This document shows positions 1,361 to 46,981 of a DNA stretch of 57,072 nt, piece after piece. The notes beneath the pieces were generated by a model that saw only the letters and a list, made by a program, of their open reading frames with translations, was not told the origin of the DNA and did not search any database. The number at the start of each line of letters is the position of its first letter. Position 1 is the stretch's first letter. The stretch is from Candidatus Omnitrophota bacterium (GTDB lineage: Bacteria > Omnitrophota > Gorgyraeia > Zapsychrales > Fredricksoniimonadaceae), in NCBI GenBank assembly GCA_016201795.1, contig JACQCF010000022.1:1-57072 (forward strand), written 5' to 3'. The position numbers were made by a program, and so were the translations under genes.

Positions 1361-3211
1361 ATGTGCGGCATCATCGGTTACGTTGGCACTCGGGACGCCA
1401 GCCCCATTCTCATCGAGAGTCTTAAAAAACTTGAATACCGCGGTTACGACTCCAGCGGCATCGGTCTTTTGGACCATCAATCTCATCTGATTGTCCGTAA
1501 ATCCAAAGGCAAAATTAAAAATTTAGAAGAGCTGCTGCGCGCCCGGCCTCTACCGTTTTCAAATATTGGCATTTCTCATACCCGCTGGGCCACCCACGGA
1601 CTGCCTTGCGATGAAAATGCCCATCCGCATACCGACAGCGCCCATCATATCGCCGTGGTGCACAACGGCATTATCGAAAACTACGCCGAACTTAGAGAAA
1701 AGCTTAAAAAGCAGGGCTGCCGTTTCCTCTCGCAGACAGACACCGAGGTGATCGCGCATTTGATTTCCGTTTTGTATAAAGGCGATTTGAAACTAGCGGT
1801 GCAGAAGGCGATGGCCCGGCTGAAAGGCGCTTTTGCCATCGGGGTCATTAGCAAAGACCATCCGGATATGCTCATCGCCGCGCGCGTGGGCTCACCTTTG
1901 ATTATCGGGCTGGGTGACAAAGAAAATTACATTGCCTCCGATGTCCCGGCGATTTTGGACCGCACCCGTCGGGTGATTTATCTTAAAGACGGGCAAATGG
2001 CTGTTTTGAGTAAAGGGAGGGTGGAGGTTTTTACGTTCGACGGTAAGAAGGTGAGATTGAAGGTTGATACGGTTTCTTTTACCGTCGGCTCCGCGCAAAA
2101 AGAGGGCTATGATCATTTCATGCTTAAAGAAATTCACGAACAGCCCGCCGTGATTGCGGCGATGCTCAAAACCTGCCTGCCGGCAGGCAGGGCCGCCCAT
2201 CAAAGCGGCAAACTCAAATTAGAAGGCCTGACAATTTCCGATAAAGCTTTAGCTTCCATAAAGAAGATTACGGTGGTTGCTTGCGGTACTGCGTATCACG
2301 CGGGTCTGGTCGGTAAATATGTCCTTGAGGCTTTGGCGCGTTTAAGCGTTGAGGTCGATACCTCCAGCGAGTTTCGTTACCGCAACGCGATCATCGACAA
2401 ACACACCCTGATGGTAGCGGTCAGCCAGTCGGGCGAGACGGCCGATACCTTAGCCGCGGTGCGCGAGGCCAGGGCCAAGGGCGCTAAAGTTATTTCTATT
2501 TGCAATGTCATCGGCTCATCTTTAACCCGAGAATCCGACGGGGTTTTGTACACGCATGCCGGCCCGGAAATCGGGGTGGCCTCCACAAAAGCTTACACGG
2601 CACAACTAATGATGTTTTATTTGCTGAGTTTGAAGCTGGCTCAGGTACGTCATAGCGTACCTGTGCGTCAACAGAGGAAACTGATCAAAGATTTGCAGAG
2701 CATCCCTAAACTTTACAGAGAGGTTTTGAAGACAAAGACGACGATAGTCAAAATTGCCCAGGCCAATTCCCATTTTGGCTGTTTTCTTTATCTGGGCCGC
2801 AATATCAATTATCCAACCGCCCTCGAGGGGGCTTTGAAACTTAAAGAAATTTCTTATATTCCCGCCGAGGGTTATGCCGCCGGAGAAATGAAACACGGGC
2901 CCATTGCGCTCATTGACGAATACCGCGCCGTTATCTGCATCGCGGTGCGCTCGCACGTGTATGAGAAGATGATTTCCAATATTCAAGAAATCCGTGCGCG
3001 CAAAGGTAATGTGATTGTCGTGGCCACCCGGGGCGACCGCCAAATCGCGCCTCATGCGGATTACGTAATTGAAGTTCCCTTCGTCGATGAATTGTTATCG
3101 CCGCTTCTGACGGTGATTCCGCTGCAGCTCATCGCTTATTACATCGCGGTCAAGCGCGGCAATGATGTGGACCAGCCGCGCAACTTGGCTAAGTCGGTAA
3201 CGGTCGAATGA
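1361..3211 (+). CDS. glmS: Glutamine--fructose-6-phosphate aminotransferase (isomerizing)
   Basis: N-terminal MCGIIG (catalytic Cys after Met removal), HTRWATHG, SQSGET, C-terminal PRNLAKSVTVE; true start is ATG 1361. Confidence 0.97.
   Translation: MCGIIGYVGTRDASPILIESLKKLEYRGYDSSGIGLLDHQSHLIVRKSKGKIKNLEELLRARPLPFSNIGISHTRWATHGLPCDENAHPHTDSAHHIAVVHNGIIENYAELREKLKKQGCRFLSQTDTEVIAHLISVLYKGDLKLAVQKAMARLKGAFAIGVISKDHPDMLIAARVGSPLIIGLGDKENYIASDVPAILDRTRRVIYLKDGQMAVLSKGRVEVFTFDGKKVRLKVDTVSFTVGSAQKEGYDHFMLKEIHEQPAVIAAMLKTCLPAGRAAHQSGKLKLEGLTISDKALASIKKITVVACGTAYHAGLVGKYVLEALARLSVEVDTSSEFRYRNAIIDKHTLMVAVSQSGETADTLAAVREARAKGAKVISICNVIGSSLTRESDGVLYTHAGPEIGVASTKAYTAQLMMFYLLSLKLAQVRHSVPVRQQRKLIKDLQSIPKLYREVLKTKTTIVKIAQANSHFGCFLYLGRNINYPTALEGALKLKEISYIPAEGYAAGEMKHGPIALIDEYRAVICIAVRSHVYEKMISNIQEIRARKGNVIVVATRGDRQIAPHADYVIEVPFVDELLSPLLTVIPLQLIAYYIAVKRGNDVDQPRNLAKSVTVE
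2172..2191. repeat. Perfect 20-bp palindrome inside glmS
   Basis: cctgcctgcc|ggcaggcagg, read in frame as (T)CLPAGR. Confidence 0.85.
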
Positions 3212-7059: not shown

Positions 7060-7533
7060 TTGCGTAAACAGAAAATCACCATTTCCGTTATCGGTGGAGG
7101 CAGCATTGGAGCAAAGGTGGAGTCTTTGGCGGAAGAGGTCGGGAAAATGATCGCGGAACTGGGTTGCGTTTTAGTCTGCGGCGGTTTGGGTGGTGCGATG
7201 GAGGCCGCCTCCAGAGGGGCTAAAAAAGCCGGTGGCACTACGATCGGCATTTTGCCTGGAAAAGAAAAAGAGGACGCCAATCCTTACATTGATGTTGCGC
7301 TTCCCACCTCCATCGGCTACGCGCGAAACACTATTGTGTCTTGCTCGGCGGATATTATCATTGCTCTTCCCGGAAGCCATGGCACCAACACGGAAATCTG
7401 TTACGGCCTTATCTATGGCCGGCCGGTTATTGACCTTGGCAACTGGGGCGTTGAAGGCATGACCCCGGCTAAGGATATACAAGAAGCCGAGGGTAAGATT
7501 AAGAAAATTATCAAAAAGTTAATCGAACAATAA
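7060..7533 (+). CDS. TIGR00725-family (LOG-like) Rossmann-fold protein
   Basis: ISVIGG, CGGLGGAMEAASRGAK..GG.TIGILPG, GYARN motifs; TTG start. Confidence 0.85.
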   Translation: MRKQKITISVIGGGSIGAKVESLAEEVGKMIAELGCVLVCGGLGGAMEAASRGAKKAGGTTIGILPGKEKEDANPYIDVALPTSIGYARNTIVSCSADIIIALPGSHGTNTEICYGLIYGRPVIDLGNWGVEGMTPAKDIQEAEGKIKKIIKKLIEQ

Positions 7534-7568
7534 AGGCCAAAGGCTAAAAACCATAGACCAAAGACCAC
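7534..7568 (+). repeat. Five degenerate 7-bp tandem repeats
   Basis: aggccaa aggctaa aaaccat agaccaa agaccac. Confidence 0.7.
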
Positions 7569-7574
7569 CCACCC

Positions 7575-9193: not shown

Positions 9194-9200
9194 GTATGCG

Positions 9201-9279
9201 TAGCGGGTGGCCGAAGGAGGGGCATCCCCATCGCCCGCAAGAATGAGGACGATGGGGATACCTGAGGACAGGACCCGTA
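9201..9279. repeat. Structured intergenic element between pyrK and pyrD
   Basis: Inner 10-bp stem atccccatcg/cgatggggat, outer gcgggt/acccgt pairing. Confidence 0.6.
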
Positions 9280-41620: not shown

Positions 41621-42697
41621 ATGGAAATAGGCATTGTGGGACTGCCCAATGTGGGTAAATCATCGCTGTTTAACGCCTTAACAGGCGCGGGGGTCGCGGC
41701 GGAAAATTTTCCCTTCACCACCATTGAGCCCAATATTGGTGTTGTTCCTTTGCCCGATGAGCGTTTAAACCGTCTGGCGAAGGAATGGGATTCCGCCAAG
41801 ATGACGCCGGCAGGCATTCGTTTTGTGGATATTGCCGGTATTGTCAAAGGTGCCAGCGAAGGCCAGGGGCTGGGCAATAAATTCCTTTCGCATATCCGTT
41901 CGGTGGATGCCATTGCGCATGTGGTGCGCTGTTTTAAGGATGATAATGTCGTCAATGTGATGAATGACTTGAATCCTCAGTCGGCGGTTGATATTATTGA
42001 AACCGAGCTTTTGCTCGCCGATATTCAGCAATGCCAAAAGGCGTTGGATCGTTGGTCCAAGCCTGCCAAAGGCGGAGATAAAGAAGCGATGGCCAAATGC
42101 AATATCCTCAATGATGCGATGAAAGCATTTAATGAGGGGATGGCGGCCCGCCGTTTCAAAGACGTGGACACAGCTTGGCTCAATGAATTTCAGTTTTTAA
42201 CCGCCAAACCGTTATTGTATGTGGCTAATACCGACGAGAGTAATGTAGACGAGGCCCTGTTAAACCCTTTGCGGGAGCGGGCGGCCAAAGAAGGCGCGGC
42301 GCTGGTGAGTTTGTGCACTAAACTTGAGGCGGAAATTGTGCAATTACCAGCCCAGGAGCGCGCGGCCTATTATGAAGCGGCGGGTATTGCCTTGCCGGGG
42401 TTGAGCCGTTTGGCGCAGGCAGGCAAAGCATTATTGCAGTTAGTTTGTTTTTTTACCGCAGGGCCGCAGGAGACGCGCGCGTGGCTTATTCCTCAAGGCA
42501 CCCCGGCGTTAAAAGCCGCCGGTAAAATTCATACGGACATTGAACGCGGGTTTATCCGTGCGGAAATTTATCGTTTTGTTGATTTAGAAAAATTAGGCAG
42601 CTATAAGGCCGTCCAAGGAAAAAACCTCGTCACCCTGGAAGGAAAAGAATACGTGATTAAAGACGGAGATGTGGCGTATTTCAGATTCAGCGTGTAG
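41621..42697 (+). CDS. ychF: Ribosome-binding ATPase YchF
   Basis: GIVGLPNVGKS, FTTIEPN, DIAG, GEGLGN-like GQGLGNKFL, AGKIHTD, EGKEY. Confidence 0.96.
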   Translation: MEIGIVGLPNVGKSSLFNALTGAGVAAENFPFTTIEPNIGVVPLPDERLNRLAKEWDSAKMTPAGIRFVDIAGIVKGASEGQGLGNKFLSHIRSVDAIAHVVRCFKDDNVVNVMNDLNPQSAVDIIETELLLADIQQCQKALDRWSKPAKGGDKEAMAKCNILNDAMKAFNEGMAARRFKDVDTAWLNEFQFLTAKPLLYVANTDESNVDEALLNPLRERAAKEGAALVSLCTKLEAEIVQLPAQERAAYYEAAGIALPGLSRLAQAGKALLQLVCFFTAGPQETRAWLIPQGTPALKAAGKIHTDIERGFIRAEIYRFVDLEKLGSYKAVQGKNLVTLEGKEYVIKDGDVAYFRFSV

Positions 42698-42700
42698 TTG

Positions 42701-42816
42701 GTGTCATTGCGAACACAGACATAGTGTCATTACGAGGAACGAAGTGACGAAGTAATCTTTTTAACATATCAAAAGATTGCTTCGCTTAAAACGAACAGCG
42801 ACGCTCGCAATGACAC
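42701..42816. repeat. Palindromic MITE/RPE-like element, copy 2 (intergenic, duplicated left end)
   Basis: gtgtcattgcgaa (42701) and gtgtcattacgag (42724), inner gaagtaatc/gattgcttc, right end tcgcaatgacac. Confidence 0.88.
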
Positions 42817-42825
42817 AAATATACT

Positions 42826-43959
42826 ATGATAGATCTACTACTCAAACAACTCAATGATCTCGAAGAGAGACTAAATACCCTTAAAGGTTACCTTGACCTT
42901 TCTGCCAGGGAAAAGGCCATTGCCGACATTCAAGCGCAAATGGCCCAGCCAGGGTTCTGGGATGGTCAGGAACTCTCCCATAAACTTATGCAGGAGCTTA
43001 AAGGTTTAAAAAATATCGTCGAGCCTTGCCGTGATTGCACCAGGCGCATCGCGGAATCAAAAGAGTTTGTCTCTTTAGCCGAAGGGGATGAAAGCATACA
43101 GGCGCAACTGGAAGAAGAGATCAAAGCGTTAACGGGTACCATCGATCAGCTGGAATTGCAGGCGATGTTATCCGGCCCCTTTGATAAGAATAACGCGCTT
43201 TTAAGTATCAATGCCGGCGCCGGCGGCACCGAAAGCTGCGACTGGGCCAATATGCTCATGCGTATGTACGCTCGTTTTGCGGATGAAAAAGGTTATGCCT
43301 GCGAGATCATCGATATCTTGCCCGGCGATGAGGCCGGTATCAAAAATGTCACCCTGCGTATTGCCGGCGATAAGGCTTACGGTTATTTAAAATCCGAAAA
43401 AGGGGTGCACCGGCTGGTGCGCATTTCTCCTTTTGATGCCAATAAGCGCCGTCATACGTCCTTTGCCTCCGTCGAGCTTATCCCCGAGATCGAAGACGAT
43501 ACACCACTGGACATTGACCCCGGCGGGCTGCGCATTGATGTTTACCGCGCCTCCGGCCCCGGCGGGCAGGGAGTCAACACCACGGATTCCGCCGTGCGCA
43601 TCACGCATTTACCGACGGGTATCGTGGTACAATGCCAGAACCAGCGCTCGCAATTGCAAAATAAAGCGCAGGCCATGCGTGTGTTACGTGCTAAACTATA
43701 TGAACTCAAAGCAAGACAGCAGGAAGAAAAATTAAACAAAGAAGCCGGGGATAAACAAAAAATCGAATGGGGCAGTCAAATCCGTTCCTACGTGCTGCAT
43801 CCGTATTTGATGGTTAAAGATCACCGTACGGGAGTGGAAACCGGCAATGCCCAAAAAGTCTTAGACGGCGATATTGATATGTTTATTCAAGGATACCTCA
43901 AAACTAAACCCCAAGAGCGGGATAAGCGTTTAAAAAATCGAGGTCAGGACGATGTTTGA
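42826..43959 (+). CDS. prfB: Peptide chain release factor 2
   Basis: [13 protein letters not shown] tripeptide, [14 protein letters not shown]; continuous reading frame. Confidence 0.96.
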
Positions 43960-46900
43960 CTTTCTTTTGCGTAATTCCGCCGTAAGCTCAGCGCAAAGTT
44001 TTATTGACCGGCTGAAGCCCAAAGTGCAGATTAACATTCATCCGGAGGCGCCGCTTCCTTCCATCGGGCTGGTCAAAAAATTGGCTCTTCGCGCTGCGGC
44101 AATTTGCGCTTTAGAAGGACAGATCAGCAGTCTTTCCGACGATCAGCTCAAAGCCAAAACCGCGCAGTTTAAAGCCGTCATCGATAAAGCCATTGCCTTT
44201 AAAAAAAGTGAGTATGAAAAAGAGCTGGGTAACTATCGCTCGGCATCCTCTGCCCAGGAACGCGAAAACAGCGCTCTGGAAATTAAACGTTTGGGCAAAG
44301 AGCTTTTTGAGGCTAAACGAAAAGCTCTCGATGAAATTTTAAACGAAGCCTTTGGGGTTGTGCGCGAGACGGGCAAAAGAACTCTTAACATGCGCCATTT
44401 CGATGGACAGTTGGTCGGCGGTATGATTTTGCATCAGGGCGGTATCGCGGAAATGACCACCGGTGAAGGCAAAACTTTGGTCGCCACCCTGCCGGCGTAT
44501 CTGAATGCCTTAACGGGCGACGGTGTGCATGTCATTACCGTCAACGATTATTTGGCCAACCGCGATCGTCACTGGATGGGGCCGATTTATGAATTCTTAG
44601 GACTTACCGTCGGATGCATCCAGCACGACGTAGGTCCTCGTGAACGCCAGGCGGCGTATGGGGCTGACATCACGTACGGCACCAACAATGAATTCGGGTT
44701 CGATTATCTGCGCGATAACATGGTCTCTTTAAAAGAAGAGATGGTGCAGCGCGGCCATCATTTTGCCATCGTTGACGAAGTTGACAGTATTCTCGTTGAC
44801 GAAGCCCGTACCCCTTTGATTATTTCAGGTCCGGCGGAAGAATCGACGGACAAATATTACAAAGCCTATCAAATTTCTAGAGAACTCAAAGGACGACGGG
44901 TCACCGAGGCCCAGGAAATCGAAGCCAAACATCGCCAAGAAAATTTAGGCGAAGGTTATGATTATCTGGCGGATGAAAAGGCCAAGTCCATTTCTCTGAC
45001 GGAATCCGGCGAGGAAAAAGCGTCGGGCATGTTCGGAGTGGCGCATTTGCATGATATCGAAACGGCTGAATACCGTCATCATGTCCTGTGCGCTTTGCGC
45101 GCCAAAGAATTTTTCAAGAGGGATGTGGACTACGTGGTCAAAGACGGCAAGGTTATTATCGTAGATGAATTCACCGGACGCATGATGCCCGGCCGGCGCT
45201 GGTCGGACGGTTTGCATCAGGCGGTGGAGGCCAAAGAAGGCATTAAAATCGAGCGTGAGAACCAGACACTGGCCACCATCACTTTCCAGAATTATTTTCG
45301 CATGTACAACAAGCTCGCCGGGATGACCGGTACCGCCTACACCGAGGCTAATGAATTCAAACAAATTTATAATCTCGACTGCGCGGTGGTTCCCACCAAC
45401 CAGCCGCTGATTCGCAAAAATTATCCCGACTGCATTTATAAAACCGCAGGGGAGAAATACAATGCCGTGGTGGCTGAAATTACCGATTGCCATACACGCG
45501 GTCAGCCGGTTTTGGTCGGTACTATCTCTATTGAAAAATCCGAACTTATATCGTCGCTGTTAAAGCAAAAAGGTATCCCGCATCAGGTCCTGAACGCCAA
45601 ATTCCATGAAATGGAAGCACATATCATTACCCAGGCCGGCCGTTTTAAAGCGGTGACCATTGCTACCAACATGGCGGGGCGCGGTACGGACATTGTTTTA
45701 GGGGGCAACGCCCAGTATTTAGCCAGAGCTTTGGTTTTGGAGAGAAACAAAGACGCTACGGTCGAAGAACGCGAGGAATTGGTTAAAACCTTTATCGATC
45801 AGTTTCGCCAGCAGACCAAAAAGGAACACGATCAGGTCATTGCGGTCGGCGGTTTGCGGGTCATCGGTACCGAGCGGCATGAATCGCGGCGTATCGATAA
45901 TCAGTTGCGCGGACGCTGCGGCCGTCAGGGAGATCCCGGTGAGTCGCGCTTCTATGTCTCTTTACAGGACGATCTCATGCGGCTTTTTGCCTCGGACCGC
46001 ATCATGTTTGTCATGAACAAACTCGGCATGGAAGAAGGCCAGGTCATTGAATCGCGCATGGTCACGGGGGCGCTGGAGGTGGCGCAGAAGCGCGTGGAAA
46101 ATTACAACTTTGAAATCCGCAAACAATTGCTCGACTATGACAACGTGATGAACAAACAGCGCGAGGTCATTTACAGCCTGCGCCGTTCCATCCTCGAGGG
46201 AGAAAACCTTAAAGATATCGTGCAGGATGCGGTTTTAGCGTATGGGGATGAAATCATTGACGCGCATTTTGCCTTGGCTAAGGAGGGCAACGCTTCTTTC
46301 GATACTCTGGCCGTGGAGTTTTTATCTAAATTCAGTTTGGACTTAAATCCCGTCAAAGAGCAACTGAAAGATTTAACGGCCGCGGAGGTTAAATCCATCG
46401 TCGCTGACCAGTTGATGAAAGCTTATGAGATCAAGGAAGTCCGGATGACGCCGGAGCTTTTGCGCCGCATGGAGCGCATGGTGCTGCTGCATACTATAGA
46501 CAGCAAATGGAAAGATCATTTGTATGTCATGGATCAGGTCAAAGACGGTATCGGCCTGCGCGCGCTGGGACAGAGAGACCCTCTGGTGGAATACAAAAAG
46601 GAAGGGTTTGCTCTTTTTAAAATTATGTACACCAGTATCAATCAGGAGATGGCTTCCCTGATGTTTAAGCTTGAGCCTATGACGCAGCCCCAGAGGCCCC
46701 GTTCGGTCTTTAGCAGTATTCCTCAGCAGGAAGTGCATCAGGAGTTTTCCGGCCCCGTCTTTGGCGGTGCAGGCCTACCTGCCGGACAGGCAGGCATTCA
46801 AACCCCTTTGGGAAGCCCAGAACAAAGCCCCGTGTTTGCGTCGAGGGAGCCATTGCAGCCAAGCGTTCAGGCATCTAAGGTGGTACCTTTAGCGTCGGTG

Positions 46901-46981
46901 CGCAGCGGTCCCAAAGTCGGCCGCAACGATCCCTGCCCCTGCGGCAGCGGCAAGAAGTTCAAAAAATGTTGTGGTCAATAG
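43952..46981 (+). CDS. secA: Preprotein translocase subunit SecA
   Basis: [39 protein letters not shown]-terminal [18 protein letters not shown]. Confidence 0.97.
46769..46795. repeat. Micro-palindrome flanked by 6-bp direct repeats inside secA
   Basis: gcaggc-ctacctgccggacag-gcaggc, period 21 nt, in frame (AGLPAGQAG); variant of the glmS palindrome. Confidence 0.75.

Follow-up and report, generated by a model that had tools for sequence, protein, structure and literature searches.

Why should the gene of an essential enzyme carry a perfect palindrome within its reading frame? The question is raised by glmS in a 57,072-nucleotide stretch of DNA from a Candidatus Omnitrophota bacterium (contig JACQCF010000022.1 of assembly GCA_016201795.1; hereafter the window), where the exact 20-nt hairpin repeat CCTGCCTGCCGGCAGGCAGG, that is, CCTGCCTG-CCGG-CAGGCAGG (hereafter P), occupies positions 2172–2191, with no strand assigned. 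As single-stranded DNA (ssDNA), P forms a stem of 8 bp with a CCGG loop (-8 kcal/mol), and it contains no stop codon in any of the six frames. In glmS it is read in frame as ACC TGC CTG CCG GCA GGC AGG (T-C-L-P-A-G-R). A 21-nt variant, CCTACCTGCCGGACAGGCAGG (CCTaCCTG-CCGGa-CAGGCAGG), lies in frame in the C-terminal linker of secA (46774–46794, likewise without strand). A first-pass annotation of the window had pointed out the palindrome and its imperfect relative in secA, both of which we located, and had proposed a tiny mobile palindrome that enters permissive loops of essential enzymes. Our analysis led us to the view that the glmS copy is very probably a derived insertion of a dispersed and recently active hairpin family. 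The complete statement, that the glmS palindrome is an orphan copy of the dispersed P hairpin and that the cognate partner of this hairpin is a GIY-YIG nuclease nested at tRNA genes, seems to us probable, with appreciable room for doubt.

The host gene (1361–3211, forward strand) encodes glutamine--fructose-6-phosphate aminotransferase; its likely start is the ATG at 1361 (MCGIIG), and the open reading frame (ORF) ends at 3211. The product is composed of 616 residues, compared with 609 in its relatives. Exactly seven residues are missing at the P site in 43 of the 45 aligned GlmS homologs from Omnitrophota (72–100% identity), where MLKSRLP-------KGKLKLEGL in the relatives is aligned with MLKTCLPAGRAAHQSGKLKLEGL in the window. 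The closest relative (90%) possesses another extra segment, of five residues, at this site, and E. coli GlmS also shows gaps in the same segment, in agreement with the earlier remark that the segment is a few residues shorter there. The absence of the seven residues from the relatives indicates that the glmS copy is a derived insertion. At the nucleotide level, the empty site in one of the outgroups (L124) reads AAG AGC CGC CTG CCC AGC GGT AAG, and its counterpart in the window is AAA A[P]GC CGC C CAT CAA AGC GGC AAA. When the 20-mer is excised, the flanks rejoin as the ancestral AAA-AGC-CGC-C (AAAAGCCGCC). The footprint on the 3' side of P (2192–2203, forward strand) consists of GCCGCC, which is the ancestral AGC-CGC-C one base out of register, followed by CATCAA, which has 6 nt in place of the 5 nt (TGCCC or TGCCG) found in the relatives. 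The extra base in CATCAA restores the glmS frame, and the ancestral Ser-Arg codons are now read as Ala-Ala; P and the footprint together yield a net gain of 21 nt, or seven codons. Judged from the alignment, the event looks like a 20-nt insertion with a nearby +1 compensation.

The inserted residues fall in a segment that would be expected to accept them. In the AlphaFold2 model of GlmS (mean predicted local distance difference test score, pLDDT, of 79), T271–R277 form the end of the helix spanning residues 253–272 and the coil after it, and the pLDDT falls below 50 at residues 277–282. In the model, P occupies a tolerant loop where the isomerase domain begins. For GlmS, the proposal of permissive loops thus stands, and the alignment with relatives gives a clean gap of seven residues. 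For SecA it is merely plausible. The secA gene (43952–46981, forward strand) carries its copy in the linker preceding the SEC-C zinc motif, which is hypervariable in length and sequence among relatives; neither a palindrome nor a clean gap was found at the linker in the relatives L160 and L161, and a clean empty site cannot be drawn because the linker is too variable.

The secA copy was instead assessed by its own sequence. It differs from P by one substitution and by one added base in the loop, beside the central CCGG, and it is read CTA CCT GCC GGA CAG GCA GG (L-P-A-G-Q-A-G). It is identical at 20 of 21 positions to CCTGCCTGCCGGACAGGCAGG, a 21-mer that occurs exactly in at least seven other genomes and encodes LPAGQAG in three of them. 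On this resemblance we accept the secA copy as a member of the P family. LPAG is encoded in two of the three frames of P, and PACRQA in the remaining one. In glmS, LPAG starts from base 6 of the element, and in secA from base 2; with the registers thus different, the shared LPAG arises from the period-4 DNA (CCTG CCTG CC) and not from protein homology. The recurrent LPAG peptide that had been ascribed to the palindrome does recur (LPAGRQ 17, CLPAGR 9, and ACRQAG 10 among the peptides encoded by P copies), as a by-product of the DNA.

The evidence for recent activity came from the contig of the closest GlmS relative, a 3.4-kb groundwater contig (L121) with 82% nucleotide identity to the window over 3.3 kb. 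It carries two exact copies of P, at positions where the window and the outgroups (L122–L124) have none. The first copy is located in the ribosome-binding site of rpmA, where TTTAGGAGGCT in the window corresponds to TTTAG[P]GAGGCG in L121; this is a clean gain of 20 nt (TTTAG^GAGG) without target duplication. The second copy lies directly 3' of the glmS stop codon, where the gain of 30 nt comprises P and, behind it, a tandem copy of approximately 10 nt of the rsmI start (TGCTATATT ATGCTTTTTATT; L121:3093–3122), by which the ATG is recreated. From the sequence, the copy of the rsmI start looks like a compensation for an insertion that split the overlapping stop and start codons. Together with the glmS copy in the window, the two copies in L121 make three polarised gains within 3.3 kb in two sister lineages, as expected of the mobile palindrome that had been proposed.

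We then looked at how far the family extends. A scan of prokaryotes, with one genome per species and a pattern covering the 20- and 21-nt forms, found P in at least 120 genome stretches (up to 8 kb each) from at least eight phylum-level groups. Among the matches listed, the hosts are Patescibacteria (many lineages), Omnitrophota, Bacteroidota, Planctomycetota, Gamma- and Deltaproteobacteria, Nitrospirota, and Chloroflexota; the Bacteroidota include the cultured Winogradskyella, Flagellimonas, Longitalea, and Flavivirga. The exact 20-mer was found in 35 viral stretches of IMG/VR, with at least six copies on one 29.5-kb contig. Two control palindromes of the same composition, made by swapping TG to GT or by swapping the arm order, gave no viral match each. 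The flanks of P are unrelated from locus to locus, and the identity of the element itself extends across phyla. A second copy with three or fewer edits is present in 12 of the 120 genome stretches listed. When the pattern fixed the stems and left the loop free, CCGG was by far the commonest loop, followed by CCGG with one additional base on either side, which gives the 21-nt forms. The majority of the copies are intergenic. This spread across phyla and phages, and the intergenic majority, go beyond what the first-pass annotation had described. A literature search, including one by exact sequence, returned no account of the P family or of its tRNA-nested nuclease partner. In two stretches (L125:10596–11273, and the same arrangement in L154), P is flanked by short tandem arrays of the heptamers GGTGAGA and TCTAACC, which pair only via G-T wobbles; this suggests a structure at the RNA level, formed by one strand.

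This distribution bears on two explanations that do not involve mobility. A palindrome of this length by itself is unremarkable, since mononucleotide shuffling of the window, repeated 200 times, gave a perfect palindrome of 20 bp or longer 16 times (8%); what carries the weight is the second, nearly identical copy together with the wide distribution. Exact copies at more than 150 other loci, compared with zero for the two controls, and the two exact copies on the sister contig refute an origin by chance, by a local template switch (quasi-palindrome mutation), or by faulty assembly, and we give such origins practically no weight. We estimate the chance of a second copy within two edits in 57 kb at approximately 1e-4 or less, which makes a coincidence improbable. 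The glmS copy is moreover kept in frame, and it was found unchanged in Logan contigs from three runs on three different samples of one study, indicating that it is not an assembly artefact of a single data set. The palindrome could alternatively be a selected cis element or protein motif in glmS and secA, such as a translation-regulating RNA hairpin or a useful LPAG loop, rather than a selfish sequence. Its stable hairpin would suit such a role, as would the Shine-Dalgarno-like AGG-GAGG that P creates at rpmA in L121. However, the compared GlmS orthologs lack the insert, the LPAG peptides come from two different registers, and the same 20-mer occurs in unrelated genes, intergenic DNA, and tRNA loops of unrelated phyla and phages. 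We therefore consider a selected function very improbable.

How P enters its sites was examined where an empty counterpart was available. The insertions are precise, with 20 or 21 nt gained and no target duplication, at rpmA in L121, at L188, L175, and L096, and in the variable loop of a tRNA-Met; a fixed-length target-site duplication, which together with terminal inverted repeats marks classical transposons and miniature inverted-repeat transposable elements (MITEs), is absent from these sites. In 25% of cases, a flanking A..T pair lengthens the palindrome. P nested in GTCAT-type (SRM-like) hairpins was encountered in a few clear cases, with no enrichment in a crude test. Copies inside genes are subject to a frame filter. 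The share of sites with a frame that stays open for 60 codons or more to either side was 56% for random genome sites, compared with 14% for the 20-mer and 30% for the 21-mer; the corresponding shares in viral sequences were 71%, 52%, and 71%. The net gain in genes is usually 21 nt. Such gains are seen in homologous phage genes, in which GCCGA[21-mer]CGGCG in L188 corresponds to GCCGACGGCG in L196, a clean difference of seven codons; likewise clean seven-codon differences were found for L175 versus L196, L096 versus L018, and L163 versus L151. The RsmI of a Yanofskybacteria genome (L059) has seven residues more than the RsmI of Omnitrophota. The other proteins hosting P include FtsK, a GDP-mannose-dehydratase-like enzyme, a PMT-type glycosyltransferase, DUF499, and Bro-N.

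One codon position of homologous phage genes carries P in two different forms. It reads CCTGCCTG-A-CCGG-CAGGCAGG in one phage and CCTGCCTG-CCGG-A-CAGGCAGG in the other (L188, approximately 690–720, and L189), and it is empty in L196. The comparison points to repeated insertion at this site or to conversion between copies.

tRNA genes are another setting in which P is found. Copies lie within 100 nt of tRNA genes in 4.9% of cases compared with 0.8%, a six-fold excess, yet more than 90% of the copies lie elsewhere. In a phage tRNA-Met (L149), P is located exactly in the variable loop; without P the gene is a canonical 72-nt tRNA, and with P it is still called as a tRNA by ARAGORN, with a long extra arm. 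We also considered whether the D-loop copies are insertions in working tRNAs, and we rejected this idea: after removal of P, only the variable-loop copy of L149 gave a good intact tRNA in ARAGORN, L035 gave only a poorly paired 86-nt tRNA-Val across the junction, and the others are tRNA 5' fragments.

Such 5' fragments also form part of a cassette that links P physically to a small nuclease gene, a link that is also new relative to the first-pass annotation. The first sign was a Pfam GIY-YIG domain that begins 51 nt after P in L070. Small GIY-YIG ORFs were then found with starts approximately 20 nt beyond P in L044, which is a complete, curated WWE3 genome, and in the viral contig L156, and at 65–150 nt from P in L012 and L046. 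In L044 and L156, a tRNA 5' fragment with P in its D-arm is followed by the ORF, after which the same tRNA sequence restarts; the restart is a complete tRNA-Lys in L044 and at least an uninterrupted 5' part, with no tRNA call by ARAGORN, in L156. The association was next approached from the protein side. Metagenome contigs searched with an alignment of three of the nucleases yielded 68 non-redundant loci (38–100% protein identity), of which 27 have P upstream, 15 exactly and 12 with three or fewer edits. The distance from the end of P to the start codon of the nuclease in the 27 loci is 10–69 nt, mostly 10–35 nt. In at least 16 loci, the 16 nt to the left of P are repeated just 3' of the ORF, where the intact tRNA begins. 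The tRNAs of the cassettes are those for Leu, Lys, Asn, Phe, Met, Arg, His, Gln, and Gly. In L262 the direct repeat extends over approximately 54 nt, comprising 23 nt upstream of a tRNA-Leu and tRNA positions 1–31, and P is present in the left copy only. The position of P inside the D-arm varies by locus, indicating that P entered the D-arm repeatedly. Loci with P cluster on the nuclease tree: their distribution requires 13 changes compared with 23 for shuffled labels, and none of 500 shuffles was as low.

The nuclease is approximately 79 residues long (75–90) and is a bare GIY-YIG catalytic domain (PF01541); an NCBIfam search with it gave no match. The nearest solved structures are those of the UPF0213 proteins BH0048 and EF2693 (1ZG2 and 1YWL), followed by the structure-specific nuclease Slx1. 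All-against-all clustering of the ORFs in the flanks of P yielded only phage structural genes, common to related viral contigs, with many spurious frames contributed by high-GC phage DNA, and a search of the viral contigs with the nuclease alignment found no further contig.

Several arrangements around the nuclease genes are recorded here in their own right. P is split by another hairpin (CCTGCCTGCCGG-[insert]-CAGGCAGG) before the GIY-YIG ORFs of L299 (approximately 1120–1180) and of L303 and L304 (approximately 1120–1190), as nested mini-insertions. In one nuclease clade (L070:3861–4178, L301, L307/L309, and L318/L322), P and the GIY-YIG domain are fused in frame within larger ORFs, and the host ORF of the fusion in L070 carries a type I restriction S-subunit domain. 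In other clades of the same GIY-YIG family (L279/L280, L287, L311, L312, L300, L306, and L327), the D-arm of the upstream tRNA fragment contains different GC-rich hairpins, of the type CCCGCCTCGAC... or CCCGCCCGAAC..., which suggests that the GIY-YIG clades have clade-specific hairpin partners.

On these grounds we propose the following scheme. P, a GC-rich hairpin of 20 or 21 nt, is dispersed by precise insertion, without target duplication, and the sites that it enters are intergenic DNA, tRNA loops, coding regions, and other hairpins. The GIY-YIG nuclease, as a structure- or single-strand-specific enzyme, may nick DNA at exposed or extruded loops and at its own hairpin. The nick may then receive the hairpin, copied or ligated in by repair or replication. 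Most copies seen in genes add a multiple of three, either as the 21-nt variant with its extra loop base or as the 20-mer with a one-base compensation, as in glmS. P is tolerated in loops and linkers because it is free of stop codons and encodes small or flexible residues (L-P-A-G-R/Q, C-L-P-A-G-R, and P-A-C-R-Q-A). The relation of solo P copies to the cassette would then be that of REPs to RAYT genes, or of SRM/NTS repeats to ssnA. That the GIY-YIG nuclease is itself what spreads P is plausible but tentative, and our judgement on this part is nearly evenly divided. It is also possible, if doubtful, that P and the 75–90-residue GIY-YIG protein constitute a minimal mobile system of an undescribed type, with neither a DNA-binding domain nor transposase chemistry, in which the gene is lodged at a tRNA by duplication of the 5' end, the hairpin is installed in exposed loops, and identical insertions of 20 or 21 nt, with in-frame ones of seven codons in essential genes among them, are seeded across bacterial phyla and their phages.

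Some of the junctions could be accounted for in another way, in which P does not transpose as a unit. Solo copies would then be repair scars: breaks made by the nuclease or by another source would be repaired with a short patch of DNA templated by an existing P, or by gene conversion from it, aided by microhomology, and the spread would be a by-product of repair. Consistent with this, the glmS target GCCGCCTGCC resembles the left arm of P, the junctions at rpmA and tRNA-Met are ambiguous by 1–3 nt (AGG/G), partial target copies stand beside some insertions (for example, at rsmI in L121), and homologous phage genes have one site with two distinct 21-nt variants. In contrast, several junctions show no microhomology at all (the 20-mer parse of glmS, and GCCGA^CGGCG of L188), and most sites have exact ends, to which nothing of the donor's flanks is attached. 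We regard repair scars as an unlikely origin of the solo copies, though one that deserves serious weight.

Several observations weigh against the reading of P as an orphan copy of a hairpin that is spread by a nuclease partner. The glmS site could also be parsed, as in the MAFFT alignment, as a 21-nt insert GGCAGGCAGGGCCGCCCATCA at 2182–2202, after CTGCCG, with the target's own GCCGCCTGCC reused as the left arm. A one-step insertion of 20 nt in an essential gene would need immediate frame repair, and the Logan contigs of the three runs show the filled glmS allele alone and no empty allele. The flank bias is modest (A at -1 in 44%, and A rare at +1), and P junctions lie in the loop of another hairpin in 22% of cases compared with 16% of control sites (p = 0.04), an effect too weak for targeting of hairpin tips to be adopted as a rule. 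The clustering of P on the nuclease tree could reflect co-inheritance of neighbours, and the P copy beside the nuclease may not be a recognition site but a passenger, or a 'plug' in the tRNA D-arm as a favoured target. Approximately 98% of the P copies found by sequence have no nuclease gene in the surrounding stretch, and no P-type GIY-YIG nuclease gene was found in the 57-kb window.

The hairpin-nuclease pair can be compared with several known systems. The Ssn proteins are single-domain GIY-YIG nucleases that cleave ssDNA beside the dispersed hairpin repeats belonging to them (Chenal et al. 2025, Nat Commun, PMC11893778). These Ssn-related motifs (SRM), NTS/dRS3 of Neisseria, exist as hundreds of orphan copies; SsnA is encoded by 81% of the genomes rich in SRM, and the authors raise the comparison with RAYT/REP (PMC11893778). 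In both Ssn/SRM and the P system, a single-domain GIY-YIG gene has a short hairpin repeat in its flank, which is also dispersed as orphans, and many phyla are involved. However, P contains no GTC and fails the SRM consensus HGTCWYN(0-2)YYVSBRH...RNCYNB (PMC11893778); it is 20–21 nt long, is a perfect palindrome in the 20-mer form, and is present only upstream of the gene rather than on both sides. In addition, the P cassette is a tRNA 5' duplication, and tRNA is not mentioned in PMC11893778; the nearest solved relatives of the P-linked protein are UPF0213 and Slx1.

The other close parallel is with REPs, which are palindromes of 20–40 nt, mostly extragenic, some of which are tolerated in frame in known genes (Di Nocera et al. 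2013, PMC3733652; for RAYT, Bertels and Rainey 2011, PMC3116915). It is conceivable that P is itself a REP-type element moved as ssDNA by an HUH tyrosine transposase of the IS200/IS605-like or RAYT kind whose gene lies at another locus, with the GIY-YIG gene nearby by coincidence or through a shared preferred target. P resembles REPs in being a short palindromic hairpin with many dispersed copies, in lacking target duplication, and in being mostly extragenic with some in-frame copies (PMC3733652). However, P has no GTAG/CGTC tag: GTAG and CGTC occur within 6 nt of P in 2.6% and 3.6% of cases, compared with 1.6% and 2.5% at random, which is no enrichment. Cross-phylum identity would, in our reading, be atypical of a REP. 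The gene linked to P encodes a GIY-YIG nuclease, and in the protein-first test P stands ahead of 40% of one GIY-YIG clade. Besides GIY-YIG, no recurrent gene, and no HUH gene linked to P, was seen in the 1.2–1.9 Mb of P flanks; whole genomes were not profile-searched for HUH. Movement by an HUH transposase thus seems improbable. By analogy, the P/nuclease pair may be filed as working like Ssn/SRM or RAYT/REP while being a member of neither.

In-frame insertion into proteins is reminiscent of the Rickettsia palindromic element (RPE), a selfish palindromic DNA that is found in frame in protein genes and adds a peptide segment (summary in PMC3733652). P is likewise inserted in frame and absent from orthologs (GlmS, phage proteins, and RsmI, each with seven additional residues). 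RPE-1 is roughly 100–150 bp long and confined to Rickettsia, whereas P has 20–21 nt, adds seven residues, and occurs in many phyla and in phages. The small dispersed repeats (SDR) of Nostocaceae are palindromes of approximately 20–30 nt that behave like mobile elements, nest in other repeats, and are restricted to cyanobacteria; P is similarly tiny, palindromic, and capable of nesting, but its sequence is different. To our knowledge, no mobilising enzyme has been identified for SDR, and no nuclease gene has been described as a partner. The lodging of a GIY-YIG gene among tRNA genes recalls SegB, a free-standing GIY-YIG homing endonuclease of the T4 tRNA gene cluster, which is inherited by cutting DNA of the tRNA region. 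SegB differs from the P nuclease in being larger and having a DNA-binding part, and in lacking a hairpin repeat and a duplicated tRNA 5' fragment. Finally, the GC clusters of yeast mitochondria are palindromic, GC-rich mini-elements that multiply, merge with one another, and pass between species (Wu and Hao 2015, PMC4478555). Unlike P, they are organellar, GC42 being 42 nt long, with putative target-site duplications and no known partner gene (PMC4478555).

The window contains further short palindromic sequences. A 126-nt doublet of hairpins of the GTCATTGCGA / GTCATTACGAGG type (SRM/CGTC-like) occupies the intergenic positions 42697–42822 upstream of prfB-secA and is absent from the relative L160. 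A perfect palindrome of 16 nt, TGCCGGCGCGCCGGCA, is located at 413–428 in a DsbA-like ORF (165–989), adjoining a 9-nt indel relative to L121, and may be another in-frame mini-hairpin. Two segments, of 82 nt (9196–9277) and 42 nt (7533–7574), are missing from the syntenic relative L123; the former holds inverted repeats of the GGGGCATCCCC / GATGGGGAT type.

The insertions of P indicate that a selfish hairpin of 20 nt can add seven residues to essential enzymes (GlmS, SecA, FtsK, and RsmI) without being lethal. Such insertions are a direct source of variation in loops and linkers, and they are a trap for annotation and alignment. Tiny palindromic repeats, whose mode of spread has in our assessment long been unclear, are now tied to a testable candidate enzyme, the 79-residue GIY-YIG nuclease, and because P is identical across phyla and phages, it can be tested directly whether the sequence spreads horizontally or is under extreme constraint by the enzyme. 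If the nuclease recognises P as ssDNA, it would bring a new specificity to the toolbox of ssDNA nucleases opened by Ssn. If P and the nuclease do constitute a minimal mobile system, the hairpin would be among the smallest mobile DNA units with an identified driver.

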